Shown here one piece after another: positions 1-44,204 of a stretch of DNA of 64,000 nucleotides (position 1 is the stretch's first letter; each line of letters starts with the position of its first letter). The notes beneath the pieces are model-generated. The model saw only the letters and a list, made by a program, of their open reading frames with translations, was not told the origin of the DNA and made no database searches. Position numbers and translations under genes: made by a program. This DNA is from Actinomycetota bacterium (GTDB taxonomy: Bacteria > Actinomycetota > UBA4738 > HRBIN12), in contig JAXDJX010000019.1 of NCBI GenBank assembly GCA_034667405.1, forward strand, positions 1,620 to 65,619. The letters run 5' to 3'.

Positions 1-1059
1 ATGACAGCGTTCGAACGCCATCTGCTGACTGATCTTGCCGGTCTTCACGAGCGCGGACAGGGACATGTCCATGGTCTGCATGCCGTACCGCCCACCGGCC
101 TGCATGGCCGAGTAGATCTGGTGCACCTTTCCTTCCCGGATTAGGTTCCGGATGGCAGGCGTAGCGATCATGATCTCGACCGCGACCGCACGGCCTTGCC
201 CGTCCGAGGTGGGGATGAGCTGCTGCGTGACCACGCCTTGGAGCGTGGTGGCCAGCTGGACGCGCACCTGCTGCTGCTGGTGAGGTGGGAACACGTCGAT
301 GATCCGGTCGATGGTCTGCGGTGCATCCTGGGTGTGCAAGGTCGCGAAGACCAAGTGACCGGTTTCTGCCGCGGTGATGGCGGTACCGATGGTCTCGAGG
401 TCTCGCATCTCACCGACCAGGATGACGTCGGGGTCCTGACGCAAGACGTGCTTCAGAGCTTGACCGAACCCGTGGGTGTCGGCACCGATCTCACGCTGGT
501 TCACGATGCAGCTCTTGTGCCGATGGAGGAACTCGATCGGGTCCTCGACCGTCATGATATGGCCGGCCCGTTCGGTATTCACGACGTCCACCATGGATGC
601 GAGGGTCGTCGACTTTCCGGACCCCGTAGGACCCGTGACCACGATGAACCCTCGCGGGAACCTCGCGAGGTCCGCGACCACTGGAGGAAGCTGGAGGTCT
701 TCGATGTTCTTGATCTCGTAGGGGATCACGCGGAACGCCGCACCGATGGAGTCTCGCTGGAAGTAGACGTTCACCCTGAATCGAGCTTTCCCGGGCAACG
801 AGTACGACATGTCGAGCTCGAGTTCCTGTTCGAAGCGCTCTCGCATCTTCTGCGGGAGGATCGCGTAGATCATGGTCTGGATGGACCGCGGCGTGAGCGG
901 GGGATATCCCTCGATCGGCTGGAGATCTCCGTGGAGCCGAACCGTTGGAGGCGCACCAGCCGTCACGTGCAGGTCCGAGCCGCCGATCTCCAACAACCTG
1001 GTCAGGAGTTCGGGGATAGGGATCTGGATATCGTCTTCTTGCTGAACAACGGTACTCAT
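1..1059 (-). CDS. pilT: Type IV pilus retraction ATPase PilT (twitching motility), C-terminal part truncated by window edge
   Basis: Reverse-strand translation from ATG at ~1057-1059 gives MSTVVQQEDDIQIPIPELLTRLLEIGGSDLHVTAG...GPTGSGKSTTLASMVD...REIGADTHGF...VGEMRDLETI, a classic PilT/PilU hexameric ATPase with Walker A and the Asp/His boxes. It is missing from the ORF track only because it runs off position 1. Its start abuts the pilB stop (TCA at 1061-1063). Confidence 0.85.
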   Translation of the reverse strand, partial: MSTVVQQEDDIQIPIPELLTRLLEIGGSDLHVTAGAPPTVRLHGDLQPIEGYPPLTPRSIQTMIYAILPQKMRERFEQELELDMSYSLPGKARFRVNVYFQRDSIGAAFRVIPYEIKNIEDLQLPPVVADLARFPRGFIVVTGPTGSGKSTTLASMVDVVNTERAGHIMTVEDPIEFLHRHKSCIVNQREIGADTHGFGQALKHVLRQDPDVILVGEMRDLETIGTAITAAETGHLVFATLHTQDAPQTIDRIIDVFPPHQQQQVRVQLATTLQGVVTQQLIPTSDGQGRAVAVEIMIATPAIRNLIREGKVHQIYSAMQAGGRYGMQTMDMSLSALVKTGKISQQMAFERCH

Positions 1060-1060
1060 C

Positions 1061-2743
1061 TCACTTCACCACCCTTGCGACCTCTTCGATGGAGGTAAGC
1101 CCCATCCGGGTCTTCTCGAGTCCGTCATCCCGCAGCGTCATCATCCCCTGCTGGATCGAGACAGCTTTGATCTGATCGGCGGAGGCCCGCTCGACCGTCA
1201 ATCGTTCGATCTCTTCACTCATCTGCATAACCTCATAGAGCCCGATGCGCCCGCGGTAGCCGGTGTTCGAACAGGCCGAGCATCCCGCGGGTCGGAACAA
1301 TTCCTTGATCTCGCTCCAGAGCCACTCGGGATAGCCGGCGAGCTGAAGTTGGGATTCCTCCGGGACGTAGGCCTCTTTGCAACGAACGCAGAGCTTTCGG
1401 GCGAGTCGCTGGGCGACCACACAGTCGATAGCCGAGGCAACGAGGAAGGTCTCCACGTCCATCTCGACGAGCCGGCTGATGGCGCTGGCGGAGTCGTTCG
1501 TGTGCAGGGACGACAGGACGAGGTGGCCGGTCAGGGCCGCTTCGATGGCGATGGTGGCCGTCTCTTTGTCCCGGATCTCACCGATGAGGACGATGTCGGG
1601 GTCGGCTCGCAGGATCGATCGCAAGGCACTGGCGAAGGTCAGGCCGGCCTTCGGGTTCACCTGCATCTGGTTGACGCCTGCGAGGCGGTACTCCACCGGG
1701 TCTTCGACGGTGATGATGTTCTTGTCTTCCTCGTTCAAGATGTTGAGGGTCGCGTACATCGACGTGGACTTGCCCGAACCCGTCGGTCCCGTCACCAGCA
1801 ATGCGCCGTAGGGCTTGCGGAAGGAGGTCTCGAAGCGCTTGTAGGCGTCTTCCATGAACCCGAGGTCTTCAAGGCGCAGGAGCGCGTTGGACTTGTCGAG
1901 GACTCGGATGACGACCTTCTCGCCGAACACCGTCGGCAGGGTCGCGACGCGGAGGTCGAGCTGCTTCCCGCCCACCCGCATGCTGATCCTGCCGTCTTGG
2001 GGAACGCGCTTCTCGGCGATGTTGAGGTCCGCCATGACCTTCAGCCGGCTGATGAGTCCGCCTTGGATGTTCTTCGGGCTGTGCATGACCTCGTGGAGCA
2101 CTCCGTCCACCCGGAATCGCACGCGGACGTCCTTCTCGGTGGGTTCGATGTGCACGTCGGAGGCACGGTCTCCGACTGCCTGGGTCATGATCGCCTGGAC
2201 CAGTTTGACGATCGGGGCTTCCTCAACGGCCGCCTCGATCTGAACGTCTGTGTCATCGGCCTGGTCGGCGGCTGCGGCGGAGAGCGCCTCGACCTGCCCG
2301 TCCATCCCGGAGAACTTCTGGATGGCCTGCTCGACATCGGCCGCGGTGGCGACCACGGGTTGCACGTCGCGGCCGGTGATTGTCCTGATGTCGTCCAACG
2401 CGTACACGTTCGCCGGGTCCGACATGGCGACCAAGAGCTTGCCGTCGCGATCGCCGATGGGGATGGCTCGATACCGACGTGCGAGCGCTTCGGGGAGCAG
2501 GGTGGTCGAACTGGGGTCGACTTGGAACTCGGACAGATCGACGAATTCGAGCCCGACCTGTTCGGCCAGAGCCCTGACCAGGTCCGTCTCCTTGATGAGG
2601 CCGAGGTCGATCAGGACGCGGCCGAGAGACTTCGGGGTCTTCCGATGCTCCTCCAGAGCTTGCTGGAGTTGCTCAGGGGTGATGAGCCCCTGTTCGATCA
2701 GGATCTGTCCGAGCTGCTTGGCCTTCCGTTTGACGGTTGTCAT
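1061..2743 (-). CDS. pilB: Type IV pilus assembly ATPase PilB / GspE family secretion ATPase
   Basis: 560 aa. Three N-terminal GSPII_E-N repeats (LGQILIEQGLITPEQLQQAL, LGRVLIDLGLIKETDL). C-terminal ATPase with Walker A GPTGSGKST and a CxxC...CxxC tetracysteine (CVRCK...CSACSNTGYRGR). Immediately upstream of pilT. Confidence 0.9.
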   Translation of the reverse strand: MTTVKRKAKQLGQILIEQGLITPEQLQQALEEHRKTPKSLGRVLIDLGLIKETDLVRALAEQVGLEFVDLSEFQVDPSSTTLLPEALARRYRAIPIGDRDGKLLVAMSDPANVYALDDIRTITGRDVQPVVATAADVEQAIQKFSGMDGQVEALSAAAADQADDTDVQIEAAVEEAPIVKLVQAIMTQAVGDRASDVHIEPTEKDVRVRFRVDGVLHEVMHSPKNIQGGLISRLKVMADLNIAEKRVPQDGRISMRVGGKQLDLRVATLPTVFGEKVVIRVLDKSNALLRLEDLGFMEDAYKRFETSFRKPYGALLVTGPTGSGKSTSMYATLNILNEEDKNIITVEDPVEYRLAGVNQMQVNPKAGLTFASALRSILRADPDIVLIGEIRDKETATIAIEAALTGHLVLSSLHTNDSASAISRLVEMDVETFLVASAIDCVVAQRLARKLCVRCKEAYVPEESQLQLAGYPEWLWSEIKELFRPAGCSACSNTGYRGRIGLYEVMQMSEEIERLTVERASADQIKAVSIQQGMMTLRDDGLEKTRMGLTSIEEVARVVK

Positions 2744-2785
2744 ATGCGCCCCATGAAGTCCATCCGGTGTAGGTCGTCAGAAGAT

Positions 2786-3523
2786 TCATTCGTCATCGTC
2801 GCCATCCATCTGAAGCAATCCCGAGAACTCTTTGGCGAGAAGCACCCGATCTACCTCGCCTTCGTCCTCGTCGGTGTCGATGCCCGCGGAACCGGCGAGC
2901 TTCTGCGGCTCCCTGCTCATGGCGGTCAGCGGTTGCTTCGGTTGCTCGGGCTCCTTCTGCTCCTCCGGCTCCGTCGGTTCCGGCGCCTCGATCATCGCCG
3001 GCGCGCTATCGCCCGGCGTCTCTGCGGGTTCGGTCCCCCCCGGCGAGGATGCCGTGCGCCCGCCCGGCCAGTTGCGTTCGACACCGGCGTTGACGTCGAC
3101 CTTCTCCTCCGCCGCAGCGGGGTGCAGGGTCGTCCTCGGCTTGCCGGAGGGGGCGGCGCCCAGCTCCGGGAGCTTCAGCGGTTCTCGTTTCGTGCGAGCC
3201 TCTTCGGCCGCGAGGAGCCCCTGCTCCATCATGTCCAGCAGGACCCCCGGGCGTACCGAGGTACCGGCGACGGCGAAGGATGAGTAGGCGCCCCGATGAC
3301 AGAAGACCCAGATCTGATCTGCGAACTCGACGAAGGAGCGTTCCGCATCGCCGAGCGCGGCGAAGCGCAGCCAGGCCGGCTTCGCTTGCATCTCGTCGTC
3401 CTCGGGGTAGGAGCCGAGGACCAGCCCGTCCCGGGACAAGATGAGACAGCTGCGAACATCGCCGACGCTGACCGCGACACGCTGAGCGAGCGCGGAATAG
3501 TCATCCATCTGTGTCTGTGGCAT
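2786..3523 (-). CDS. Roadblock/LC7 (MglB-like) domain protein with about 125-aa acidic/proline-rich disordered C-terminal tail
   Basis: N-terminal ~115 aa (LAQRVAVSVGDVRSCLILSRDGLVLGSYPEDDE...SSFAVAGTSVRPGVLLDMMEQ) has the roadblock/LC7 pattern. The remainder is low-complexity PE/TE-rich and ends in MDGDDDE. Only 43 bp upstream of pilB on the same strand. Assignment is by pattern recognition only. Confidence 0.5.
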   Translation of the reverse strand: MPQTQMDDYSALAQRVAVSVGDVRSCLILSRDGLVLGSYPEDDEMQAKPAWLRFAALGDAERSFVEFADQIWVFCHRGAYSSFAVAGTSVRPGVLLDMMEQGLLAAEEARTKREPLKLPELGAAPSGKPRTTLHPAAAEEKVDVNAGVERNWPGGRTASSPGGTEPAETPGDSAPAMIEAPEPTEPEEQKEPEQPKQPLTAMSREPQKLAGSAGIDTDEDEGEVDRVLLAKEFSGLLQMDGDDDE

Positions 3524-3574
3524 CGGCGGCCGGCACTCAAGCCTTGAATCGTTCGCTCGAGGGTGACGAACCGT

Positions 3575-4405
3575 CTAGAGGGCTGGGTCGTTCATCGCAG
3601 CGAGTGCGGCGGCCGACATCACATCCAGGGGCGCCGGACGCCCCGACCAGATCTCGAATGCGAGCGCCGCCTGGTGCAACAACAGCCCGACTCCCCCGAA
3701 CGCCGCCGCCCCCGCGGCCCTGGCGTTCGTCTGCAGCGGGGTGACTGCCGGGTGGTACTTGAGATCGACCACCATCATGCCCGGGGCATACGCGGGCTCG
3801 GGGGGTATCCCAACACCGTCGAAGCCGATCGGCGTGGCGTCGATGACCAGGTCGCCGTGCCACCCGGCTGCGTCGTCGAACGCGATGACATCAACGGGGG
3901 TTCCCAAGCCCTCGAGCGTTCCTTGGAGGCCCAGGGCCCGGGTGTGCTCCCGTACCGCAACGCTGATCCGGGACGCGCCGCCTTGTGCGAGGGCGAGCGC
4001 GCAGGCTCGAGCGGCTCCGCCGGCACCATAGATGAGCGCTGTCACCCCACGCGGGTCAAGGCCGGCATCCTGTCGGAGGAACCCGTCGAAGCCCGGTGCG
4101 TCGGTGTTGTGGCCGATCAGGTCGTCGCCTTGGATCTCGATCGTGTTGACGGCGTGCAAGCGGGCAGCCTCATCCGTGAGTCGAGCCGACAAGAGATCCG
4201 CGATCTCTGTCTTGTGGGGCATGGTGACGTTCGCTCCGGCAAGTCCCAGTGCGGTGATGGCGGCCACGGCCCTCCCGACGCTGCCGGGGGGCACCGGCAA
4301 AGGGACGTAGACCCAGTCCATCTCCAGTGCATCGAACGCGGCGTTGTGTATCGCCGGCGACAACGAGTGGGCGACGGGCCAGCCGATGATGCCGGCCACG
4401 CGGGT
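3575..4405 (-). CDS. aroE: Shikimate 5-dehydrogenase AroE
   Basis: Conserved N-terminus VAGIIGWPVAHSLSPAIHNAAF plus NVTMPHK and the GAGGAARA NADP-binding loop. The ORF-track 5-prime extension (MGCRPALS...) overlaps mltG and was rejected. Start set near 4405, approximate. Confidence 0.8.
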   Translation of the reverse strand, partial: TRVAGIIGWPVAHSLSPAIHNAAFDALEMDWVYVPLPVPPGSVGRAVAAITALGLAGANVTMPHKTEIADLLSARLTDEAARLHAVNTIEIQGDDLIGHNTDAPGFDGFLRQDAGLDPRGVTALIYGAGGAARACALALAQGGASRISVAVREHTRALGLQGTLEGLGTPVDVIAFDDAAGWHGDLVIDATPIGFDGVGIPPEPAYAPGMMVVDLKYHPAVTPLQTNARAAGAAAFGGVGLLLHQAALAFEIWSGRPAPLDVMSAAALAAMNDPAL

Positions 4406-4421
4406 GGCTCCCGACAGTCGC

Positions 4422-5501
4422 CTATCCAAGACAGGTCTTGTCCTGAAGGAAGGTGTTGTAATCGGTGCTGAAGCGCAGGCGCGCCTCCCCCGGGCATTGC
4501 AGGAAGTATCTGAAGGGCGAAGTCGCCGGACTGAGGGCCGCCAACAGCGACTCTTTGCTCGGACTCGCGATAGGGCCGGGCGGCAACCCACGATTCAGCC
4601 GGGTGTTGTAGGGACTGTCGATGGCGAAGTCACTCGTGGTCAGCCCATCCGAAGGGTTCGGGTCGATGTAGGCGACGGTCGTATCGAACCCAAGCGTCAT
4701 GTGCAATCTCAGACGGTTGTAGATAACGGCGGCGACCAGCTTGCGGTCGGCCGGATGCACCACCTCCTTCTCGATCATGGAAGCGACAACGACAGCCTGA
4801 TACGGGGTGATGCCGAGCCGGCTCGTGTTCTCCCACGGGAAGGAGGCGGTATCGCTCTTGAACTGGTCCAGCAACCGCTGGATCACGGTCGCCGACGTCA
4901 AGTCCTTGCGCTGGAACTCATACGTCTGCGGCCACAGGAAGCCCTCGATGCTCTTGCCTGCGGGCAGGTAAGGAGGCAAGGAGTACTTCCCACTCATCAC
5001 CGCCGTCATGAAGATTTTCTGTGGGATCCCAAGGTCCTGCTGCACCGCCAGGGCGATCCGAGTGGCACGCCAGCCGGGGATGACCGTCAGATCGACGGTC
5101 GGAGAGGCGACCGGAGTCGCAACGGGCGGCGTGCTCAGGATCTTCACCGCGTCGGCCATCGTCATGTTCGTGGTCAGGTCGAACGAGCCGGCACGGATCT
5201 CGCTCGCCTTCCCGGTCCCCTCCAGGAGCGTCCGACCCACGAACCCTCCGCAGCCGACGACCCCTTTGTCGTGGAGGAGATCGACGGTCTGGCTGCCCGA
5301 CGCGCCCGAGGGGATGACCACGGTGACGTTCGTCTTCGGTCCGTCGGGAGCCTTGCAGTGCGCGTAGTAGCGGACACCGCCCAACGCGATCCCCGTGACT
5401 GCCAGGAAGAACACCAACAACGCGATGAGGGCTTTTCGATGAGGATGCTCGTCGCGGGGGCGACTGGGTGCTGTGGGCTCGGCGACCTGGGCTCCTGGCA
5501 T
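4422..5501 (-). CDS. mltG: Endolytic murein transglycosylase MltG (YceG family)
   Basis: 359 aa with N-terminal TM helix (LIALLVFFLAVTGIALGG) and a YceG-like domain (GFLWPQTYEF...SMIEKEV). Conserved alaS-ruvX-mltG-aroE synteny of actinobacteria. Confidence 0.85.
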   Translation of the reverse strand: MPGAQVAEPTAPSRPRDEHPHRKALIALLVFFLAVTGIALGGVRYYAHCKAPDGPKTNVTVVIPSGASGSQTVDLLHDKGVVGCGGFVGRTLLEGTGKASEIRAGSFDLTTNMTMADAVKILSTPPVATPVASPTVDLTVIPGWRATRIALAVQQDLGIPQKIFMTAVMSGKYSLPPYLPAGKSIEGFLWPQTYEFQRKDLTSATVIQRLLDQFKSDTASFPWENTSRLGITPYQAVVVASMIEKEVVHPADRKLVAAVIYNRLRLHMTLGFDTTVAYIDPNPSDGLTTSDFAIDSPYNTRLNRGLPPGPIASPSKESLLAALSPATSPFRYFLQCPGEARLRFSTDYNTFLQDKTCLG

Positions 5502-5545
5502 CGAGCACCGAGGATAGCGGCCGATCCCCGGAGGCGACCGACCCG

Positions 5546-5974
5546 CTAGTGGCCGGTGTGTCGGTCGAGCCAGGCCTGAAGGATGAGTGTGGCCGCCGTC
5601 TGATCGACGGTCTTTCGGCGTTGCCTCCCAACGACACCGGCTCCGCGCAGCAATCGTTCGGCCTCCACCGTGGACAGGCGTTCGTCCTGGAAGTCGATCG
5701 GCACGTCGAGGAAGCCCTCAAGAGCGCCGGCGAACGCCCGTGCATGGCCCGCGCGTGGCCCCTCCTTGCCGGACAATTCGCGGGGAAGTCCGACCACCAC
5801 GACCGAGATCTGATCTTCGATGACCATGGCGGCGATCGCTTTCAGTTCGCCGGGGGGCTGCCCCACATGGACGGTGCCGAACGGCACCGCGACCCGGCGA
5901 TCCGGATCGCTGATGGCCACCCCGATCCGCGCATCGCCGGGGTCCAGTCCCAGGACCCTCCCGAGCTCAGGCAC
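5546..5974 (-). CDS. ruvX: Holliday junction resolvase-like pre-16S rRNA nuclease RuvX/YqgF
   Basis: 142 aa, RNase H-like fold motif RVLGLDPGDARIGVAISD. Overlaps the alaS stop by about 8 nt. Confidence 0.85.
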   Translation of the reverse strand: MPELGRVLGLDPGDARIGVAISDPDRRVAVPFGTVHVGQPPGELKAIAAMVIEDQISVVVVGLPRELSGKEGPRAGHARAFAGALEGFLDVPIDFQDERLSTVEAERLLRGAGVVGRQRRKTVDQTAATLILQAWLDRHTGH

Positions 5975-8603
5975 CGCCGATGAGGATCTGCTTCAGTCTC
6001 CCCGGGATAGCGGCGAGAGCAGCCGGCACCTGATCGGGGTGCTTCCCACCCGCGTTGGCGAGGATGTCTTTCCCGCCGGCCCCGCCGCCGACCAACGCCG
6101 CAGCATCGCGGAGCAGCTCAGGAGCCGTGACGCCCCGCTCCACAGCACCTGCGGTGCAAGCCGAAACGAGTTGCGCCTTGCCGTTCTCGCCGTTCCCGAG
6201 CACTACGGCTGCGGGCTGGGAGGCGAGTTTGTCCCGGAGCTTCTGCGCCAGATCGCGGAGACCTCCCATGTCTTCTCCGGGAACTTCAGCGACGACCAGG
6301 ACGACGCCATCAACTGTGTCCGCCGTCTCCGCGAGGGAGGAGAGCAGCGTGTCGCGATCGCCGGCGCGGAGCGCGCCGAGTTCGTTCTTGAGGCGTTTGT
6401 TCTCCTCGAGCACCCGTCGCGCGTGGTCGAGGGCGCTGCGCGGGTCCTTCGACCCCAACGCCTTCACCAGCCCGTCAAGTAGCGCCCGCTCGGCGTTGAT
6501 CTCCCGCAGCGCGTCGGGACCGACCAAGGCCTCCACTCGTCGCATACCGGCACCGATCGATCCCTCGTGAAGGATCTTCACGATAGCGATGTTCCCGGTC
6601 CGTTGGACGTGCGTGCCACCGCAGAGTTCGCGCGAATAGTCGCCGACCTCCACGACGCGAACCACATCTCCGTACTTCTCACCGAAGAGTGCGGTGGCTC
6701 CAAGCGCTTTGGCTTCGGCCATCGACGTCTCGAAGATGGTGATCGCATCATCGCTGGCCAGACGCCGGTTGGCCTCGAGTTCCACCTCGTCGAGGACATC
6801 TTGGGGGACGGCGCTCGGATGCGGGAAATCGAACCGGAGCCGCCCCGGCGCGACCAACGAGCCCGCTTGGCGGGCGTGTTCGCCGAGCAGGTGCTTCATG
6901 GTCCAGTGGACGATATGCGTGCTGGTGTGGGCACGCGCGGTGGCCTCGCGCCGCGAGACGTCGACCTCGGCGTGCGCCTCCTGGTCGGCCCGAACCTCTC
7001 CGGCCTCCACCGTGCCCAGGTGCATGATCGAGTGGTCACCGATCCTCTGCGTGTCGGTGACCTGGATCACGCCCGTTGTGGTTCGGATCCGGCCGTGGTC
7101 CCCCACCTGGCCGCCGCCTTCCGGATAGAACGGCGTGACGTCCAAGAAGAGCCGCACCGCCTGGCCCTCCTCTACCGCGGATAGCTCACGGAAATCGGGA
7201 TCCAGCAAGGCACCGATCTTGCTCTCGGCCTCCAGTTGGCCGTATCCCACGAACTCCGCCGCAGGCGCGGCGCCGGCATCCAACCCGATGGGGACCTTCT
7301 TCGCACTGCCGCGGGCCCGTTCGCGCTGTTCGTGCATGAGCGCCGTGAATCGGTCCATATCGACGGTCCGACCGGCCTCCGCGACGAGTTCCTCCGTGAG
7401 CTGGGGCGGGAAGCCGAACGTGTCGAACAGTTTGAACGTTTCCTCGCCCGGGAACGTCCCTCCCGCAGGGGTGGTTCCGAGTGCGCGTTCGAAGAGCTGC
7501 ATCCCTTGGCGCAGCGTCCCGCCGAACCGTTCCTCCTCTCCCCCGACCACCTGGAGGATGAACGCGCGGTTCTCGACCAGCTCCGGGTAGGCGTGCCCCA
7601 TGAGTTCGACCGTTCGGTCGACGAGTGGTTCCATCACGGGCTTGTCGATGCCGAGCCGACGGGCGTGTGTTACGACCCGACGGAGCATCCGGCGGAGGAT
7701 GTAGCCGCGCCCTTCGTTCGATGGCTGAACGCCGTCCGCGATGAGGAACGACACGGAACGCCCGTGCTCGGCGATCACCTTGAGGGACACATCGTCGCGT
7801 GCGTCGGCGCCATGACGGCGACCCGACAAGTTTTCGACGACCTCGAAAAGTGGGCGGAAGATGTCGGTCTCGAAATAGTTGTCCTTGCCTTGCAGCACCG
7901 TCGCGACCCGCTCGAGGCTCGAACCGGTGTCGATGTTCTTCGCGGGAAGCTCTCGGATCACTTCCTCGTCGGCGTCGACCTCGTCTTGCATGAACACCAG
8001 GTTCCAGATCTCCATGAACCGTTCTTCGTCCACATCGGGGCCGCCCTCGGGCCCGTACCTCGCACCTCGATCCACGAAGATCTCCGAACATGGTCCGGCC
8101 GGACCGGCCGCGTGTGTCGACCAGAAATTCGCAGGCTCGCCGTGCTCGTCGAACTTCCCACGCCGGACGATCCGCTCCGTCGGCAGCCCCAACGCCCGCC
8201 ACGCTTCGGTGGCCTCCTCATCGGTCTCGAACACGGTGACCCACAGACGGCCCGGGTCGATGCCATACCCATCGGTGACGAGTTCGTGCGCCCACCCGAT
8301 GGCCTCTGCCTTGAAGTAGTCGCCGAAGGAGAAGTTCCCGAGCATCTCGAACATCGTCAGGTGGCGTGCCGTGTGACCGACGTTCTCGATGTCGTTGGCG
8401 CGGAAGCACTTCTGACAGGAGGTCGCGCGTACGAACGGGGCCGGCGCCTGGCCCAGGAAGTACGGGATGAACTGGTTCATGCCAGCGTTCGCGAGCAGGA
8501 GACCCGTCTCCGGTGGCGGGATCAGCGACGAACTCGGCACACGCTTGTGGCCACGCTCTTCGAAGAACGAAAGGAACGTCTCGCGGATCTGGTCACCGTT
8601 CAC
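5967..8603 (-). CDS. alaS: Alanine--tRNA ligase
   Basis: 878 aa. Class II core (FTNAGMNQF, motif 3), editing-domain HxxxH/CxxxH (HTSTHIVHW...CGGTH) and a C-terminal DHHA1 domain. Confidence 0.95.
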   Translation of the reverse strand: MNGDQIRETFLSFFEERGHKRVPSSSLIPPPETGLLLANAGMNQFIPYFLGQAPAPFVRATSCQKCFRANDIENVGHTARHLTMFEMLGNFSFGDYFKAEAIGWAHELVTDGYGIDPGRLWVTVFETDEEATEAWRALGLPTERIVRRGKFDEHGEPANFWSTHAAGPAGPCSEIFVDRGARYGPEGGPDVDEERFMEIWNLVFMQDEVDADEEVIRELPAKNIDTGSSLERVATVLQGKDNYFETDIFRPLFEVVENLSGRRHGADARDDVSLKVIAEHGRSVSFLIADGVQPSNEGRGYILRRMLRRVVTHARRLGIDKPVMEPLVDRTVELMGHAYPELVENRAFILQVVGGEEERFGGTLRQGMQLFERALGTTPAGGTFPGEETFKLFDTFGFPPQLTEELVAEAGRTVDMDRFTALMHEQRERARGSAKKVPIGLDAGAAPAAEFVGYGQLEAESKIGALLDPDFRELSAVEEGQAVRLFLDVTPFYPEGGGQVGDHGRIRTTTGVIQVTDTQRIGDHSIMHLGTVEAGEVRADQEAHAEVDVSRREATARAHTSTHIVHWTMKHLLGEHARQAGSLVAPGRLRFDFPHPSAVPQDVLDEVELEANRRLASDDAITIFETSMAEAKALGATALFGEKYGDVVRVVEVGDYSRELCGGTHVQRTGNIAIVKILHEGSIGAGMRRVEALVGPDALREINAERALLDGLVKALGSKDPRSALDHARRVLEENKRLKNELGALRAGDRDTLLSSLAETADTVDGVVLVVAEVPGEDMGGLRDLAQKLRDKLASQPAAVVLGNGENGKAQLVSACTAGAVERGVTAPELLRDAAALVGGGAGGKDILANAGGKHPDQVPAALAAIPGRLKQILIGGA

Positions 8604-22384: not shown

Positions 22385-23428
22385 CTACAGAGGCAGCGTC
22401 CCGGGCGCAGTGACCCCCAGATGGGCCGACGCTCGGGGTGTCGCGACCCGCCCCCGGGGCGTTCGTTGGAGGAAGCCCAGCTGGAGCAGGTATGGCTCCA
22501 CGACGTCTTCGACCGTGTCCGTCTCCTCGCCCACCGACGCCGCAAGGGTGGAAAGTCCCACGGGTCCCCCACCGAACTTCTGGATCAGGGCGGCAAGCAC
22601 GGCGTGGTCCAGTCGGTCAAGGCCGAGTTCGTCGACCTCGAAGAGTTGAAGCCCTGCGCGCGCGATGTCGCCCGAGATCGCACCTTCGTGCCGCACCTCC
22701 GCGAAGTCCCGAACCCGGCGGAGGAGCCGGTTCGCGATCCGAGGGGTGCCACGGGAACGGCGGGCGATCTCATCGGCGCCGTCGGCATCGGTCCGGACCC
22801 CCAGGATCCCCGCCGATCGGAGGGCGATCGTCGCGAGCTCGTCGGGGGCGTAGTAGTCGAGTCGAGGGCTGAAACCGAACCGTTCTCGCAGAGGGAGGGT
22901 GATCCGGCCGGGACGGGTGGTCGCCGCGACCAGCGTGAACCGCGGCAGCTCGAGCCGGATCGATCTGGCCGTCGGACCTTTCCCGAGCATCACGTCCAGG
23001 TTGAAATCCTCCAGTGCCGGATAGAGGACCTCCTCGACTGGCCTCGGCATCCGGTGGATCTCATCCACGAACAGGACATCGCCCTCGCCGAGATTGGTCA
23101 GGATGGCTGCCAGGTCGCTCGGGCGATCGAGCGCAGGTCCCGACGTGGGCTGGAACCCCGCACCCATCTCATGCGCGACGATCTGGGCCAGCGTGGTTTT
23201 GCCGAGTCCCGGCGGACCGCTGAACAAGAGATGGTCGATCGTCTCGCCCCGGGCCCGCGCACCCTCGATGAGGAGCGCCAACTGCTCCTTCACCCGCTCC
23301 TGCCCGACGAATTCGTCGAGCGAGCGAGGGCGGAGCGCGACATCGAACTCGCGATCTTCCGAACTCACAACGGCACCCTCGATGAGGCGTTCGTCGGCGG
23401 TGAGGTCGATATCGGGGTGCTCGTCCAT
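22385..23428 (-). CDS. ruvB: Holliday junction branch migration ATPase RuvB
   Basis: Walker [12 protein letters not shown], Walker B LFVDEIHR, and a RuvB winged-helix C-terminus. Start chosen at MDEHPDIDL; the track 5-prime extension was rejected. Confidence 0.9.
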
Positions 23429-23432
23429 CGTC

Positions 23433-23999
23433 CTAGCGTCCCACGCGCTGGAGGGCTTCGCGCAGGAGATCCTCCACCTCGCGTCCGTCGGGTTCGACAC
23501 CGGTGAGTGCGACAGCCGCCTCCTGCTGCGTGAGCCCCAACTGCATCAACGCCTCACGCACATCCGCTACAGGACCCTCGGCGGCCAGGTCGGTGGCCCC
23601 ACCCAGCTTCTCGCGGAGATCGAGGATGACTCGCTGGGCGACCTTCTTACCGACTCCGGGCACAACCACCAACGCGGCCGCATCGCCGTCGACGATGGCG
23701 CGTGTGAGTGTCGCGGTCGAGAGCGCAGACAACATGTTCAGCGCGACCTTCGGTCCGACCCCGCTCACCCCCGTGAGATGGTCGAACAGTGCCCGCTCGT
23801 CCGTAGTCGAGAACCCGTAGAGGAGCATGGCGTCATCGCGGACGATCATCCTCGTATGGACGCGCGCGGTACGGCCCACGGCCGGAAGCGCCGCGATGAC
23901 CGAGGTCGGGGCCTGGATGTCGTAGCCCACGCCGGCGACGTTCAGGACGATCCCCGAAGCCGAACGCTCCGCGACCTCCCCCTCCAGGAACGAGATCAT
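23433..23999 (-). CDS. ruvA: Holliday junction DNA helicase RuvA
   Basis: MISFLEGEV... OB fold, two HhH motifs ([23 protein letters not shown]) and C-terminal domain III. The ORF-track extension overlaps ruvC and was rejected. Confidence 0.9.
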
Positions 24000-24505
24000 C
24001 GCGTGCCCAGCCGCGCGACGGACCGCATCCGGGCGGCGCTCAGGTGGGTGAGCGCGATGGCCACTGCGTCCGCCGCATCCGGTTGGTCCGGCACGGCCTT
24101 CAGTCCGTGGATCCGAACCAACGCATCTCGGACCTGGGCCTTGTCGGCATTCCCCATCCCGGTGATCGCGCTCTTCACTTCGGTGGGAGCGTATTCGTCC
24201 ACCGTCAGACCGGCCTCCGCGGCAACCACCATGACGGCTCCGGTTGCACGCGCCACCTGGAGTGCGCTCACGGTGTTGCGATTGAACGCGACTCGCTCCA
24301 GCGCCACGGTTCCGGGTGCATGGTCCTCGATGGCCCGACGCATCGCGGCCGCGAGGATCCGCAGACGCTCGGCTTCCTCCATGCCCGAAGGGGTGCGGAT
24401 GGTGTCGGCCCACAGGAGGACAGGTGTGCGCTGGGATCGAGCGACGCACGCGAGGCCCATCCGGGCCACGCCGGGGTCCACACCGAGTACGCACGCGTCG
24501 AACAT
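23996..24505 (-). CDS. ruvC: Crossover junction endodeoxyribonuclease RuvC
   Basis: Start at MFDACVLGVDPG (catalytic Asp), RNase H-like fold. The start codon lies inside a LexA box. Confidence 0.85.
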   Translation of the reverse strand: MFDACVLGVDPGVARMGLACVARSQRTPVLLWADTIRTPSGMEEAERLRILAAAMRRAIEDHAPGTVALERVAFNRNTVSALQVARATGAVMVVAAEAGLTVDEYAPTEVKSAITGMGNADKAQVRDALVRIHGLKAVPDQPDAADAVAIALTHLSAARMRSVARLGTR

Positions 24506-24513
24506 CTGTTCGT
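24498..24513. promoter_or_regulatory. LexA box overlapping the ruvC start codon
   Basis: TCGAACATCTGTTCGT. The CAT inside the left half is the complement of the ruvC ATG. It sits between the yebC stop and ruvC. Coordinates approximate. Confidence 0.75.
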
Positions 24514-24563
24514 GCAGTCTAGGCGCGGGGCCGAGGCCGGGCAATCACCCCGACGGGGCTCGG

Positions 24564-25313
24564 TCACAGTGACGCCATAACCTCTTCGGGGATGTCGAAA
24601 TTGGCGTAGACGTTCTGGACGTCGTCGAGTTCTTCGAGCGCTTCGATGAGCTTGAGCACCTGACGTGCTTCGCCGCCCTCCACCGGGATGGTGGTCTGCG
24701 GCATCATCGTGAGGTCGGCCGAATAGACCTGGACGCCGGCCTCCTCCAAGGCCCCTTGCACCTGCTTGAACACACCCGGCTCCGCCACGATGTCCCAGGA
24801 ACTCTCCGAGTCGCTGAGATCCTCGGCTCCCGCTTCAAGGGCAAGCTCTAGGAGTCGATCCTCGTCGGGCGCGACCGCCTTCTCCACCACGATGACGCCC
24901 TTCCTGGAGAACATCCAGGAGACGCTCCCCTGTTCGCCGAGATTGCCGTTGTTGCGGCTGAAGGCGTGCTTGATCTCTTGGCCCGTGCGGTTGCGATTGT
25001 CGGTGAGCGTTTCGATCAACAATGCGATGCCGCCGGGTGCGTAGCCCTCGTAGACGAGCTCCTGGTAGTGCGCGGTATCGGCGTCCGCCCCGACGCCTCG
25101 CTTGATGGCCCGGTCGATATTGTCGCTGGGGACGCTGAAGCTCTTCGCCTTCTCCACCGCGGAAGCCAGGGTCATATTCCCCTCGATGCTCCCGCCACCT
25201 TCGCGCGCCGCGACCTCGACCGCGCGCAACAGCTTCGCGTACATGTTCGAACGCTTGGAGTCGGTAGCTTCCTTCTTCCGTTTGATGGTGGCCCATTTGG
25301 AGTGACCAGACAT
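24564..25313 (-). CDS. yebC: YebC/PmpR family DNA-binding transcriptional regulator
   Basis: 249 aa beginning MSGHSKWATIKRKK, the hallmark YebC N-terminus. Confidence 0.9.
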   Translation of the reverse strand: MSGHSKWATIKRKKEATDSKRSNMYAKLLRAVEVAAREGGGSIEGNMTLASAVEKAKSFSVPSDNIDRAIKRGVGADADTAHYQELVYEGYAPGGIALLIETLTDNRNRTGQEIKHAFSRNNGNLGEQGSVSWMFSRKGVIVVEKAVAPDEDRLLELALEAGAEDLSDSESSWDIVAEPGVFKQVQGALEEAGVQVYSADLTMMPQTTIPVEGGEARQVLKLIEALEELDDVQNVYANFDIPEEVMASL

Positions 25314-40349: not shown

Positions 40350-40655
40350 GGGAGCCCTCTCACGATACCAACGAACGCAGCGTCACCGAGTTCGAACAAG
40401 GTGACGGCGGCACGTGCCCGCGTCGTGCCGCCGTCGGTCCGAGTCGCTGAGACTCAGACGTTTGAGGTAGTGCGCGCTGACTAGTCTGGCACGGGTCACG
40501 CGGCGCGAGCAAGCGGGAACTGGACGCCGAACACTCCCCCGCCCAAGAGGCCTTTGCCTCCTATCGGCCTCTGGAACACCGGGTGTACGGTGGCCGAGGG
40601 ACGCGCGATCGCGTCCGCGGAGGTGAGGGACTTGCGGAGCAGGAGAACGGTCACG

Positions 40656-41132
40656 ATGATCGCGGGCGCCCTGTTGCTGGTGATCGCCACGGCAGCCGCG
40701 ACCTACGGGACGGTGAGCCAGTACGTAGCGCGGCCTCTGAACCGTCAGAACCTCGGCGTCATCAAAGGGCCGCCGCGCACCACCCACTCGACATCGTTCA
40801 AAGACCTGGGTGGCTGGGGTCTGTCGGACGGGATGACCATCGACGCCCGTGCCGGCCTGGCTGCGACCCTAAGCGTCACCGTCAGCGGCGCCCCGGTGGA
40901 GTTCAGGATCTTCACCGAGGACGTGAACAACGGGTTCGCGATCCACAACCTTCCCCCCGGCTCGGCCCATTTCGATCCGGGGACCGGCACGCAATCCGTT
41001 TCCTTCACGTGGGTCTCTGGCCTGGCGGCGGGCCGCTACACCGTGAACATCGCCTGGAGGTCGCCGACGGGCGCCATCGTCACGCTCGATCGGGGGTCCC
41101 TGGTCGTTCAGTACGGCGCTCGCGTTCCCTGA
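40656..41132 (+). CDS. Hypothetical secreted/membrane-anchored protein
   Basis: ATG at about 40656 with an AGGAGAA RBS 8 nt upstream. N-terminal signal/anchor MIAGALLLVIATAAATYG, then a Gly/Thr/Val-rich probable beta-sandwich. High GC3. No recognisable family. Confidence 0.45.
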   Translation: MIAGALLLVIATAAATYGTVSQYVARPLNRQNLGVIKGPPRTTHSTSFKDLGGWGLSDGMTIDARAGLAATLSVTVSGAPVEFRIFTEDVNNGFAIHNLPPGSAHFDPGTGTQSVSFTWVSGLAAGRYTVNIAWRSPTGAIVTLDRGSLVVQYGARVP

Positions 41133-43339: not shown

Positions 43340-44020
43340 TCATTCGCCTCGGAGGGGACCCGAGGAACCCTGCCATGCAGCTGGAAGTGTGGGCGGCGTC
43401 TCCCAGCGGAAGTAGTTGCTGATGATGGCCAGGCAGAGGCCATGGTTGGGGCCGGGGATCGCACACGTGAGTTTGGTGTTGGATTCGGTGGGCTGGTTGG
43501 TGACCGCAACGACCCCGATCGTCGTCTCCGGTCCCCCGGAGGGGTCACCCGTACCGAATACGCCTGGCGGGTCCACGAACACGGCGACCGTGGGACTCGG
43601 ATGCGAGACGAGCTCGCCCTTGACAGGTTTCGTGGCGAGGTATCTGCAATAGCCACGAGGGAGGTGGATCGAGAAGAGCGAACACACCGCCGATCCCATG
43701 GACGCGTGATCCTCCGTAACCGTCACGATCCCCTCTCGCATGCCGGGCGACCAGACGCTGAGGTAGAGGGAACCATCGCCACCGACATCACCTTGGCAGA
43801 TCGTCCACTCGCTTGGCGCCAAGACGCTCTGGAACCCGTCGCTGAACAACGAGAGCTGCGCGAGGGCGGCGTTCGATGCCGCAGGCGGCGCCAAAGGAGG
43901 CGGGGCCGAGGTTGTGGCTCGGGTCTCGGGGCCCAACGGGCATCTCACGACAGGAATCTGCGGCCGCCCCGGATCGGTGTCCGACCGACTCGCGGGCGAG
44001 TGACACGCGGACGAGAGCAT
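43340..44020 (-). CDS. Hypothetical Cys-rich protein (possible lipoprotein)
   Basis: 226 aa with 8 Cys and coding-like GC3. The in-frame upstream translation reads RTLAATLAAATMLSSAC (a lipobox-like LSSAC) but offers no canonical start before reaching tRNA-Val, so the N-terminus is uncertain. Confidence 0.4.
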   Translation of the reverse strand: MLSSACHSPASRSDTDPGRPQIPVVRCPLGPETRATTSAPPPLAPPAASNAALAQLSLFSDGFQSVLAPSEWTICQGDVGGDGSLYLSVWSPGMREGIVTVTEDHASMGSAVCSLFSIHLPRGYCRYLATKPVKGELVSHPSPTVAVFVDPPGVFGTGDPSGGPETTIGVVAVTNQPTESNTKLTCAIPGPNHGLCLAIISNYFRWETPPTLPAAWQGSSGPLRGE

Positions 44021-44129
44021 CGTCGCCGCGGCCAGGGTGGCCGCTAGCGTCCTCGAACCCTCGAAACGCCTGCGTGTCCCCGTGCTACGGCTTAAAGCGG
44101 ACGGTGTCGCACCGGGTCGTCGTTTCGCG

Positions 44130-44204
44130 TGGTGGGCGATGGAGGATTTGAACCTCCGACCTCTTCCATGTCAAGGAAGCGCTCTCCCCCTGAGCTAATC
44201 GCCC
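44130..44204 (-). tRNA. tRNA-Val (anticodon GAC)
   Basis: Reverse complement GGGCGATTAGCTCAGGGGGAGAGCGCTTCCTTGACATGGAAGAGGTCGGAGGTTCAAATCCTCCATCGCCCACCA. Anticodon loop TTGACAT, encoded CCA. Confidence 0.85.

Follow-up and report, generated by a model that had tools for sequence, protein, structure and literature searches.

A protein with a roadblock fold and a motif-bearing disordered tail is encoded directly upstream of the type IVa pilus motor genes in uncultured Actinomycetota

The window, that is, the whole 64-kb stretch of DNA that was analysed, contains at its beginning four genes in the order aroE, X, pilB, and pilT, all on the minus strand. pilT (1..1059), which codes for the retraction ATPase and is truncated by the window end after its first 353 codons, matched TIGR01420 with 487 bits. 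pilB (1061..2743, 560 aa) codes for the type IVa pilus assembly ATPase (T2SSE match of 1.4e-140; TIGR02538, 663 bits) and carries at its N-terminus an MshE-type c-di-GMP-binding motif (MshEN, 3.2e-26; NF053729, 72 bits versus a cut-off of 38). The two ATPase genes stand in tandem with stop and start 1 nt apart, as was proposed in the preliminary description of this DNA, and the junction reads TGA-G-ATG. The gene that we call X (2786..3523, stop TGA at 2788-2786) is an open reading frame of 245 aa counted from the ATG at 3523, and its product combines a roadblock fold with a disordered tail that bears motifs. Its location upstream of pilB had been described correctly, while the distance, given as 43 bp, is a spacer of 42 nt (2744-2785). 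The upstream neighbour of X, which is outside the system, is aroE (shikimate dehydrogenase, about 3575..4432); the coordinates of the reading frames agree with the earlier placement of this gene upstream and co-oriented, with 51 nt between both genes. Alignments of the spacer between X and pilB revealed a conserved noncoding element, CGACCTACACCGGATGGAC (2758..2776, minus strand), whose family consensus is CGACCTAG(A/C)CCGAACGGAC; a GGGG/GGAG run that resembles a Shine-Dalgarno sequence comes after it. A riboswitch or attenuator was considered for this spacer and dropped because RNAalifold gave no conserved pairs.

The scan for σ70 promoters in the region 900-6200 gave no promoter-like sites, and the terminator scan of the same region gave matches at chance level. 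Ahead of X there is a conserved motif of the σ28/WhiG type, TCAA-N16-GNCGATG, located 9-13 nt before the start codon. In the window the −35-like element is TCAA (3544..3547, minus strand), which fits the WhiG2 −35 consensus T(A/C)AA (PMC12871210) and is part of a TCAAG that was invariant in 34 aligned upstream regions; the −10-like element is GCCGATGC (3520..3527, minus strand), 16 nt downstream of TCAA, and includes the first ATG of the reading frame (3523). The complete TCAA-N16-GCCGATGC has a 10/12 match to the published WhiG-type consensus T(A/C)AA-N16-GCCGATAA (PMC8325347, PMC12871210) and ends 11 nt before the ATG at 3508, so that a σ28/WhiG promoter match, as a match of sequence, lies less than 200 bp from the start codon. 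TCAA-N16-GNCGATG occurs only once in the window, ahead of X, and the motif is found on the coding strand only. Most of the loci that match it have it at the same position upstream of X, a slightly relaxed form was present there in 94 of 116 non-identical loci, and among the listed loci without the motif most have the CCCGATAG variant. A second hotspot of the motif was observed ahead of the pilin gene. In Rubrobacter and Actinoplanes, the genes for type IV pili are under the control of sigma factors of the WhiG type (PMC8325347, PMC12871210). Taking into account that X heads the pilus operon behind this promoter-like motif, we assign it to the pil genes and not to aroE.

Considering that the ATG at 3523 is inside the −10-like element and that most homologues begin with MDDY, the true start of X is probably the ATG at 3508 (MDDY..., 240 aa); the earlier figure of 245 aa is right for the length of the reading frame, and the likely length of the protein is 240 aa. 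The conserved CGATG upstream of X was also evaluated as an alternative start codon and rejected, since in several loci (L017 and L019 among them) it is out of frame with the MDDY ATG, the distance not being divisible by three. At the other end, the X of the window finishes 3 residues early by the change of a GGx codon to TGA, and most homologues end in ...DDDEGSS.

The X family comprises 1444 proteins at E<=1e-3, which form 372 clusters at 50% identity. All the members come from metagenomes of uncultured organisms, and the named matches are all uncultured Actinomycetota/Actinomycetes MAGs; a cultured host was looked for and none was found. The proteins vary in length from 173 to 454 aa, and all share a roadblock domain, a basic motif, a variable Pro/Glu/Ala linker, a near-invariant C-terminal peptide, and an acidic end, an architecture that is kept down to 30% identity. 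The search of X against Pfam and NCBIfam gave nothing beyond a weak match to Robl_LC7, and the protein is uncharacterised, as had been supposed.

The ordered part of the predicted structure is formed by residues 6-113 (3185..3508, minus strand; 245-aa numbering), with the topology alpha-beta-beta-alpha-beta-beta-beta-alpha, which is the fold of the Roadblock/LC7 superfamily (Pfam PF03259, COG2018). The match to the Pfam Robl_LC7 profile had an E value of 0.014 and 15.5 bits, versus a gathering score of 23, and covered only residues 18-44; the same weak match was obtained with 33 of 33 homologues, the best E value being 2.4e-4. The roadblock/LC7-type domain that had been announced for X thus stands as a predicted fold and falls below the gathering threshold as a profile match, and given these weak scores the structure model places X in the superfamily at the fold level only. 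When the X profile was compared with the sequences of the PDB, the sole match was 2o5h, whose E value of 0.07 falls short of significance and which is no roadblock protein. The fold agreed best with MglB, MglC, and CvnB, the top structural matches were protein-binding roadblock/longin domains and not GAF or PAS domains, and the domain of X has the extra third helix typical of roadblocks of the MglB/CvnB type. The domain itself is an already known fold. To our knowledge, all the roadblock proteins whose structures have been solved are dimeric platforms, and homo- or heterodimers of this superfamily pair through helix 2 and an edge strand; X was modelled as a monomer.

The remainder of the protein, residues 114-245, was predicted with low confidence. 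The preliminary description of this region as a long acidic disordered tail was right about its acidity and disorder and has to be completed with two short motifs, where the conservation of X is highest. The first is the basic motif APSGKPRTTLHP (3119..3154, minus strand; residues 124-135), with the family-wide pattern (K/R)(K/R/P)PRxxLH, in which A124, P125, S126, K128, P129, R130, H134, and P135 are invariant in alignment A1; the block conservation is 0.81, and the low pLDDT indicates that it is probably a linear motif. Then comes the variable, Pro/Glu/Ala-rich disordered linker (2864..3118, minus strand; residues 136-220), with pLDDT of 40-60, a net charge of −10, and column conservation of 0.15-0.47. 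The second motif, EVDRVLLAKEFSGLLQ (residues 223-238), is followed by the acidic end MDGDDDE (together 2789..2857, minus strand); the C-terminus reads QMDGDDDE, in accordance with the ending that had been noticed before. In the family this peptide is DRVLLAKEFSGLL, almost invariant and likewise followed by an acidic end. No other 10-residue block of X is as conserved (0.88), and D225, L229, A230, E232, F233, and L236 are invariant in 142 sequences; with the deep alignment the peptide was predicted as a 12-residue helix with a pLDDT of 84. It was found 147 times in all the DNA retrieved, each time as the C-terminus of X, and in none of the other proteins of the clusters. In view of that pLDDT, the modelled helix could dock on its own domain instead of on a partner. 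Other identities were compared and found unconvincing: for the C-terminal motif, the N-terminal CheY-binding peptide of FliM (EVDRVLL versus EIDALL, a weak likeness by eye) and the RsiG c-di-GMP motif; for the basic motif, a PilZ motif.

The tight linkage of X to pilB-pilT that had been proposed was seen in all the loci examined. X is directly upstream of pilB in 80/80 genome loci, in 64/64 evaluable metagenome loci anchored on pilB, and also in 5 diverged loci (L084-L086, L167, L168), so that it is neither absent from this place nor variable in it. Every locus has aroE or mltG upstream of X and pilB downstream, and the genes further downstream in the relatives are pilC, pilins, pilD, and pilM; position and co-orientation within the type IVa pil cluster are thus conserved across diverged genomes. 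The gap between X and pilB goes from 1 to 91 nt. In L086 the stop of X and the start of pilB are 1 nt apart, and to judge by this arrangement in the DNA X is translationally coupled to pilB in that relative. It could be argued that the linkage is incidental and that X, which is co-oriented with aroE at 51 nt in the window, is a housekeeping protein of an alaS-ruvX-mltG-aroE operon without a role in the pilus. We consider this highly improbable and close to refuted: aroE is missing between mltG and X in six loci (L043, L056, L071, L084, L085, and L086) where X still adjoins pilB, X keeps with pilB and not with aroE where the latter is missing or lies at 3 kb, X has a conserved promoter-like motif to itself, and its family was found only in genomes with this pilus cluster.

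Bacterial roadblock proteins usually act with GTPases of the MglA or CvnD type. The statement of the preliminary description that no MglA-like GTPase is visible in the window was borne out by the Pfam survey, which detected no small Ras-like GTPase in the 64 kb. Nor did tblastn with an MglA query find a small GTPase up to a distance of 10 kb from X at any of 83 loci, and the Pfam tables of five loci contain none. By comparison, MglB, the GAP of MglA in Thermus thermophilus and Myxococcus xanthus, shares with X the fold, including the third helix, and is tied functionally to motility by type IV pili, much as X is linked to the pil genes; as a dimer bound over the switch regions of the GTPase it stimulates the hydrolysis of GTP. 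It lacks the linker of about 100 residues and the C-terminal peptide, its identity to X is 9-13%, and mglBA is a separate locus, whereas X is inside the pil operon with no adjacent or co-occurring gene of the MglA family in the window and the flanking 10 kb. CvnB of the Streptomyces conservons (PDB 3leq, 3kye) is actinobacterial, like X, with 16-20% identity; it has no tail motifs, and it is encoded in cvnA-cvnB-cvnC-cvnD operons together with a kinase-like sensor and a GTPase, an arrangement that X did not have in any locus. The earlier analogy with MglB, as a GAP that sets the polarity of the motors, finds no direct support, there being no linked GTPase and CvnB and MglC being structurally as close to X as MglB.

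A related explanation is that X is a partner of the MglB/CvnB type (GAP, GEF-like, or adaptor) of an unlinked Ras-like GTPase and that the pair sets where and when PilB and PilT act, with MglA/MglB/SofG of Myxococcus as the model and the C-terminal helix of X contacting the GTPase. In M. xanthus, MglB contacts its partner via a C-terminal helix. The explanation agrees with the ranking of the fold matches, the third helix, the placing by JGI of a few proteins of the family in COG2018 ("regulator of Ras-like GTPase activity"), and the common occurrence of CvnD-type GTPases in Actinobacteria (PMC4316618). We regard it as rather unlikely, given that mglB and cvnB normally adjoin the gene of their GTPase while none was found around X, and given the low identity to MglB.

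MglC, the RomR-MglB adaptor of M. xanthus, was ranked sixth by Foldseek for X. It exemplifies the roadblock fold as a noncatalytic protein-protein adaptor and belongs to a polarity module that controls pili; unlike X, it is a single domain without a tail, is part of a GTPase module, and is not encoded with pilB. MglC and LAMTOR, as roadblock scaffolds, lend some weight to the idea that X, by its roadblock dimer and long tail, anchors the pilus base to a landmark (the pole, the division site, or the cell-wall machinery) leaving the ATPase activity unchanged. A long flexible tether with a terminal peptide is a design of FtsZ-like tethering, and X is linked to mltG and to a neighbourhood of cell-envelope genes. 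That linkage to mltG and aroE is general in actinobacteria and less strict than the one to pilB, X has no membrane-binding or wall-binding feature, and its acidic end disfavours binding to anionic membranes; we judge such a scaffold unlikely.

Another proposal would make X a sensor of a small molecule, for example c-di-GMP, in which the profilin-like roadblock fold or the Arg-rich motif binds the nucleotide messenger and signals to the motor. The MshE-type motif of PilB, the control by c-di-GMP of WhiG-type sigma factors via RsiG in basal actinobacteria, and the conservation of the basic motif, which reads RRPRxxLH in family members at 30-40% identity, are in line with it. Inspection of the alignments of X showed no PilZ RxxxR + DxSxxG, MshEN, or RsiG ExxxSxxRxxxQxxxD motif, and its best structural matches bind proteins and are not of the GAF or PAS kind, which leaves a sensor very unlikely.

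The reading that we favour, with the balance of probability slightly on its side, is that X acts in the cytoplasm as an accessory or regulatory protein dedicated to the pilus and is encoded by the promoter-proximal gene of a type IVa pilus operon (X-pilB-pilT-pilC...). Its roadblock domain would act as a homodimeric platform, and two tethered elements, the basic KPRxxLH motif close behind the domain and the helix DRVLLAKEFSGLL at the C-terminus together with the acidic end, would dock on a cytoplasmic component of the motor. PilB would be the most likely partner, because its N-terminal domain is the usual site of cofactors and starts here with a run of basic residues, KRKxK; as alternatives we consider PilT and PilM. 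Binding of X may control when and where PilB, or the exchange of PilB and PilT, engages the machine, and X would be produced along with the motor when a σ28-type sigma factor is active. The model needs no dedicated small GTPase, though it is compatible with one. A more specific version, which we advance tentatively, is that X is a GTPase-independent roadblock "light chain," a dimer that binds PilB and/or PilT via the C-terminal peptide and gates extension and retraction.

The niche proposed for X is that of PilZ, FimX, and CpiA, a set of small cytoplasmic proteins whose binding to PilB, for the most part at the N-terminal domain, gates extension (PMC11656802). Control of PilB by small cofactors at that domain is established (Roberge & Burrows 2024, PMC11656802), and the review of these cofactors names no roadblock protein. 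They are proteobacterial and their folds are unrelated to that of X, which had no homology to them in the Pfam/NCBIfam search. In Archaea, type IV pilus loci repeatedly include roadblock genes (Makarova et al. 2016, PMC4858521); these arCOG02603 roadblock/LC7 proteins, of unknown function, were compared with X at the fold level only and have no described tail motifs, whereas X is bacterial and has them. The dynein light chain Roadblock/LC7 has the same fold and serves an ATP-driven motor complex as an accessory subunit in dimeric form; a eukaryotic protein whose ligand is the disordered intermediate chain of dynein, it offers X a distant analogy only.

If the light-chain proposal is true, X would parallel Roadblock/LC7 on dynein, the old idea of NTPase regulation by roadblock proteins would be widened from small GTPases to the hexameric ATPases of the secretion superfamily, and X would count among the core accessory parts of type IVa pili in monoderm actinobacteria. 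Should X work independently of a GTPase, it would be the first case in bacteria of a roadblock protein known to act directly on a motor ATPase, and the unexplained roadblock genes of the archaeal pilus loci would gain a meaning. With the conserved σ28/WhiG-type motif, the connection of c-di-GMP and WhiG with type IV pili that has been published for Rubrobacter and Actinoplanes is extended to a large lineage of uncultured soil organisms. Much has been learned about the motors of type IV pili in Proteobacteria, and very little about how they are controlled in monoderm Actinomycetota; X, which is always encoded first in the operon, ahead of PilB and PilT, makes a strong candidate for a missing regulatory subunit.

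The leftmost genes of the window all lie on the minus strand, in the order alaS (8603..5967), ruvX (5974..5546), mltG (5501..4422), aroE (about 4432..3575), gene X (3523..2786), pilB (2743..1061), and pilT, which occupies 1059..1 and runs off the window end. By X we denote the gene directly 5′ of pilB, whose product is a predicted roadblock-fold protein with a disordered tail. Full-length PilB is identified as an assembly ATPase of the type IVa pilus by T2SSE (1.4e-140) and TIGR02538 (663 bits), and the pilT product matched TIGR01420 with 487 bits. The spacer between X and pilB measures 42 nt, and the stop codon of pilB and the start codon of pilT are 1 base apart (TGA-G-ATG). The layout given in the preliminary description, in which X stood upstream of a tandem pilB-pilT pair separated by 1 nt, is therefore correct, as borne out by ORF coordinates and HMM matches. 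The remaining 8.6-64 kb is a conserved actinobacterial housekeeping block with rarA, aspS, hisS, dtd, relA, apt, secF, secD, yajC, yebC, pdxS, an EF-G-like gene, a MacB-type ABC pair, nrdJ, nrdR, hflX, dapF, miaB, rny, recX, recA, and cinA, besides tRNA genes at 40.3-44.9 kb (Val, Val, Cys, and Gly). No Pfam match was obtained for several ORFs of the window, for example, 23025-24572 (+), of 515 aa, 40485-41132 (+), and 43340-44170 (−).

The conservation of X beside pilB, which had been proposed as a check, was found at every level of divergence sampled. When loci were anchored on X, all 80 species-level genome loci had pilB immediately 3′ of it and pilT next in line; when metagenome loci were anchored on pilB (PilB at 76-97% identity), X was present in all 64 with enough upstream sequence, two of these copies having been missed by tblastn and recovered by eye. 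The arrangement was also unchanged in the five diverged loci L084-L086, L167, and L168, where X retains 30-40% identity and PilB 57-65%. The X-pilB spacer ranged from 20 to 91 nt in 47 loci, and in L086 the stop of X and the start of pilB are 1 nt apart. In L043, L056, L071, and L084-L086 aroE is missing between mltG and X, and in L046 it lies 3 kb away; X still adjoins pilB in all of them. The window ends within pilT, so pilC, the pilin genes, pilD, and pilM are not visible in it. In relatives, the region 3′ of pilT, which the preliminary description had singled out for inspection, holds pilC, 1-3 pilin-like genes (N_methyl), 2 or 3 unannotated genes, and pilD, the prepilin peptidase gene. 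X is obligatorily co-located with pilB-pilT-pilC and is probably co-transcribed with them. Where the fetched sequence extends far enough, the gene after pilD is a tiny one of the HTH_17 (excisionase) type, encoding 47-69 aa, an unusual element within a pilus cluster (L001:20316-20459 and L086:20294-20503, for example); in L001 this gene is followed by pilM.

Two loci deserve comment on their quality. In L018, from a nanopore-derived MAG, the pilB frame, from 10805 onward, continues for 950 codons, apparently into pilT; an assembly frameshift is more likely here than a natural pilB-pilT fusion. Interrupted matches to alaS, aroE, or pilB, of the sort that indel errors produce, recur in several other MFD MAG loci. 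L069 (JBLMXP010000145.1) is a 4-kb contig with ruvX-mltG-aroE-X-pilB in a MAG labelled Planctomycetaceae, and it looks like a binning contaminant, because the distribution of X is otherwise strictly actinobacterial.

The region between aroE and X is unconserved except for an invariant TCAAG, a 15-nt spacer, and G-N-CGATG. These form a σ28/WhiG-type promoter-like motif, TCAA-N16-GCCGATGC, at 3520-3547 on the minus strand, directly 5′ of X, which agrees with the consensus T(A/C)AA-N16-GCCGATAA published for WhiG promoters (σ28 family) of actinobacteria (PMC12871210). Transcription of type IV pilus genes by WhiG-type sigma factors has been demonstrated or predicted in Rubrobacter, where transcription start mapping backs the link, and in Actinoplanes (PMC8325347). 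The pattern TCAA-N16-GNCGATG(C) matched once in the 64-kb window, at 3547..3521, with 0.22 matches expected by chance, and it occupies the same position 5′ of X in most of the matching fetched loci. A slightly relaxed form precedes X in 94 of 116 non-identical loci, and most of the listed loci lacking it carry TCAA-N16/17-CCCGATAG instead. Among 38 full 20-kb loci all matches were on the coding strand and none on the opposite one; 31 were just 5′ of X and, depending on how far the pattern was relaxed, 7 to 12 fell between pilC and the pilin gene. Second copies of this kind, between pilC and the first pilin gene, were seen in several relatives, for example, at L021:15547, L032:15661, L043:15094, L052:15812, L081:15830, and L088:8046, which parallels the multiple WhiG promoters reported within the Rubrobacter pilus cluster. 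Judged from its sequence, the motif places X at the head of the putative pilus operon.

The position of the motif also bears on the start of X. The start codon of MDDY comes 9-13 nt after the end of the −10-like octamer in most loci; in the window the ORF's first ATG (3523) falls inside this octamer. Since the −10-like part holds this ATG, and in some loci the distance from CGATG to the ATG of MDDY is not a multiple of three, the real start is probably ATG 3508, giving a protein of 240 aa. The transcript leader would be expected to be very short or absent. At the other end of X, a 19-nt non-coding element with the consensus CGACCTAG(A/C)CCGAACGGAC lies in the spacer before pilB (2758-2776, minus strand) and is kept across lineages whose X proteins share only about 50% identity. 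No conserved RNA structure was found in it; it might bind a protein or help to initiate translation of pilB.

Among 5.8 billion proteins searched, 1444 were related to X at E≤1e-3; when 1.84 billion cluster representatives were searched exhaustively with a profile, the number of clusters matched was 372 at E≤1e-3, falling to 310 at E≤1e-10 and 171 at E≤1e-30. By these sequence criteria the family is compact and stays separate from generic roadblock proteins. The named sources are without exception MAGs of uncultured Actinomycetota or Actinomycetes from soil, groundwater, or sediment, with no cultured organism among them. The alignments resolve four modules: a roadblock domain (residues 6-113); about 10 residues further, a basic motif (APSGKPRTSLHP in the main clade, RRPRxxLH at 30-40% identity); a Pro/Glu/Ala-rich linker, very variable in length and sequence; and a C-terminal motif, (E/D)(V/I)DRVLLAKEFSGLLQ, followed by the acidic end DxDDDEGSS. 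Protein length across the family ranges from 173 to 454 aa. The most conserved 10-residue block is RVLLAKEFSG (0.88 vs 0.86 for the best block of the folded core), and AlphaFold with a deep alignment modelled the C-terminal motif as a 12-residue helix (pLDDT 84). In all fetched DNA its pattern occurred 147 times, each time as the C-terminus of X and nowhere else. The tail had been described as acidic and disordered; it is indeed flexible with an acidic end, and it also holds two invariant linear motifs, the basic one and the C-terminal peptide DRVLLAKEFSGLL. Most homologues continue to ...DDDEGSS, and in the window X ends at ...DDDE through a GGx codon turned into TGA (2786-2791, minus strand), with loss of the usual GSS. 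A remnant of the old frame, ATC TTC TGA, is still readable, and the same early stop is present in L006, L020, L030, and L034.

At sequence level the evidence for a roadblock domain is weak. Pfam Robl_LC7 matched X over residues 18-44 only, at E 0.014 and with 15.5 bits, short of the gathering score (23); the same weak match appeared in all 33 homologues tested (best E 2.4e-4), NCBIfam gave no match, and the family profile found no roadblock protein among PDB sequences. However, AlphaFold2 with a 33-sequence alignment folded residues 8-111 with pLDDT of about 90, and a 142-sequence alignment raised the domain to 90-97, with a predicted topology alpha-beta-beta-alpha-beta-beta-beta-alpha. All 50 matches listed by Foldseek in the PDB were roadblock-family structures (probability 1.00, target-normalised TM-scores 0.5-0.77), including the Streptomyces avermitilis roadblock domains 3kye and 3leq, Asgard roadblocks, MglC 7ct3, MglB 6hjm/6h5b/1j3w, and LAMTOR/MP1-p14. 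These clear fold matches support the predicted roadblock fold, but X is a divergent member missed by the Pfam model; the earlier roadblock/LC7 assignment stands on structure and not on the HMM score.

In structure X comes nearest to CvnB (conservon roadblocks), MglC, and MglB. Unlike these proteins in their genomic setting, X has no adjacent GTPase and no conservon operon; it lacks their defining genomic feature and is therefore not filed in those families, and its reading as a GAP is unproven. As the preliminary description had stated, no MglA-like GTPase was found in the window. Tblastn with a hand-entered Myxococcus xanthus MglA query against the window and 83 loci gave only P-loop noise (E≥1.9), the Pfam survey of window ORFs yielded only the EF-G-like and HflX GTPases, and within 10 kb the precomputed Pfam tables of five relatives listed no domain of Ras, Roc, Arf, or MglA type. 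It is possible that a GTPase partner is encoded unlinked, outside the searched window and loci; the main rival reading, that X is an MglB/CvnB-like partner of such a small GTPase, seems to us improbable.

We lean slightly towards a general model in which X acts in the cytoplasm, probably as a dimer, and serves the pilus motor as an accessory subunit or regulator. The linker would act as a tether, and the C-terminal peptide, perhaps with the basic motif too, would dock on a partner. The foremost candidate for this partner is PilB, with PilT and PilM as alternatives; a specific contact with PilB is nevertheless a tentative and rather doubtful proposal. The known PilB cofactors PilZ, FimX, and CpiA act post-translationally, mainly via the PilB N-terminal domain (PMC11656802). 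In the X clade PilB begins with a conserved basic KRKxK stretch, which could complement the acidic end of X. The PilB N-terminus also carries a tandem MshE-type c-di-GMP motif (residues 1-62; 2560-2743, minus strand; NF053729, 72 bits vs a cut-off of 38), which would make gating of pilus extension by c-di-GMP probable at the protein level too.

Taken as a feature X is real, and the original observation is confirmed. The domain call itself is no novelty, since JGI's automatic annotation already labels a few family members "Roadblock/LC7/MglB family". No roadblock protein is named in the review of PilB cofactors from 2024 (PMC11656802), and the sole precedent found for a roadblock gene within a type IV pilus locus is a single line on archaeal arCOG02603 (PMC4858521). 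The family as such, with its tail architecture and invariant C-terminal peptide, appears to be undescribed, as do its fixed position as the first gene of a type IVa pilus operon in actinobacteria and the σ28-type motif before it. The proposed role of X in the pilus motor is directly testable with synthesised genes.
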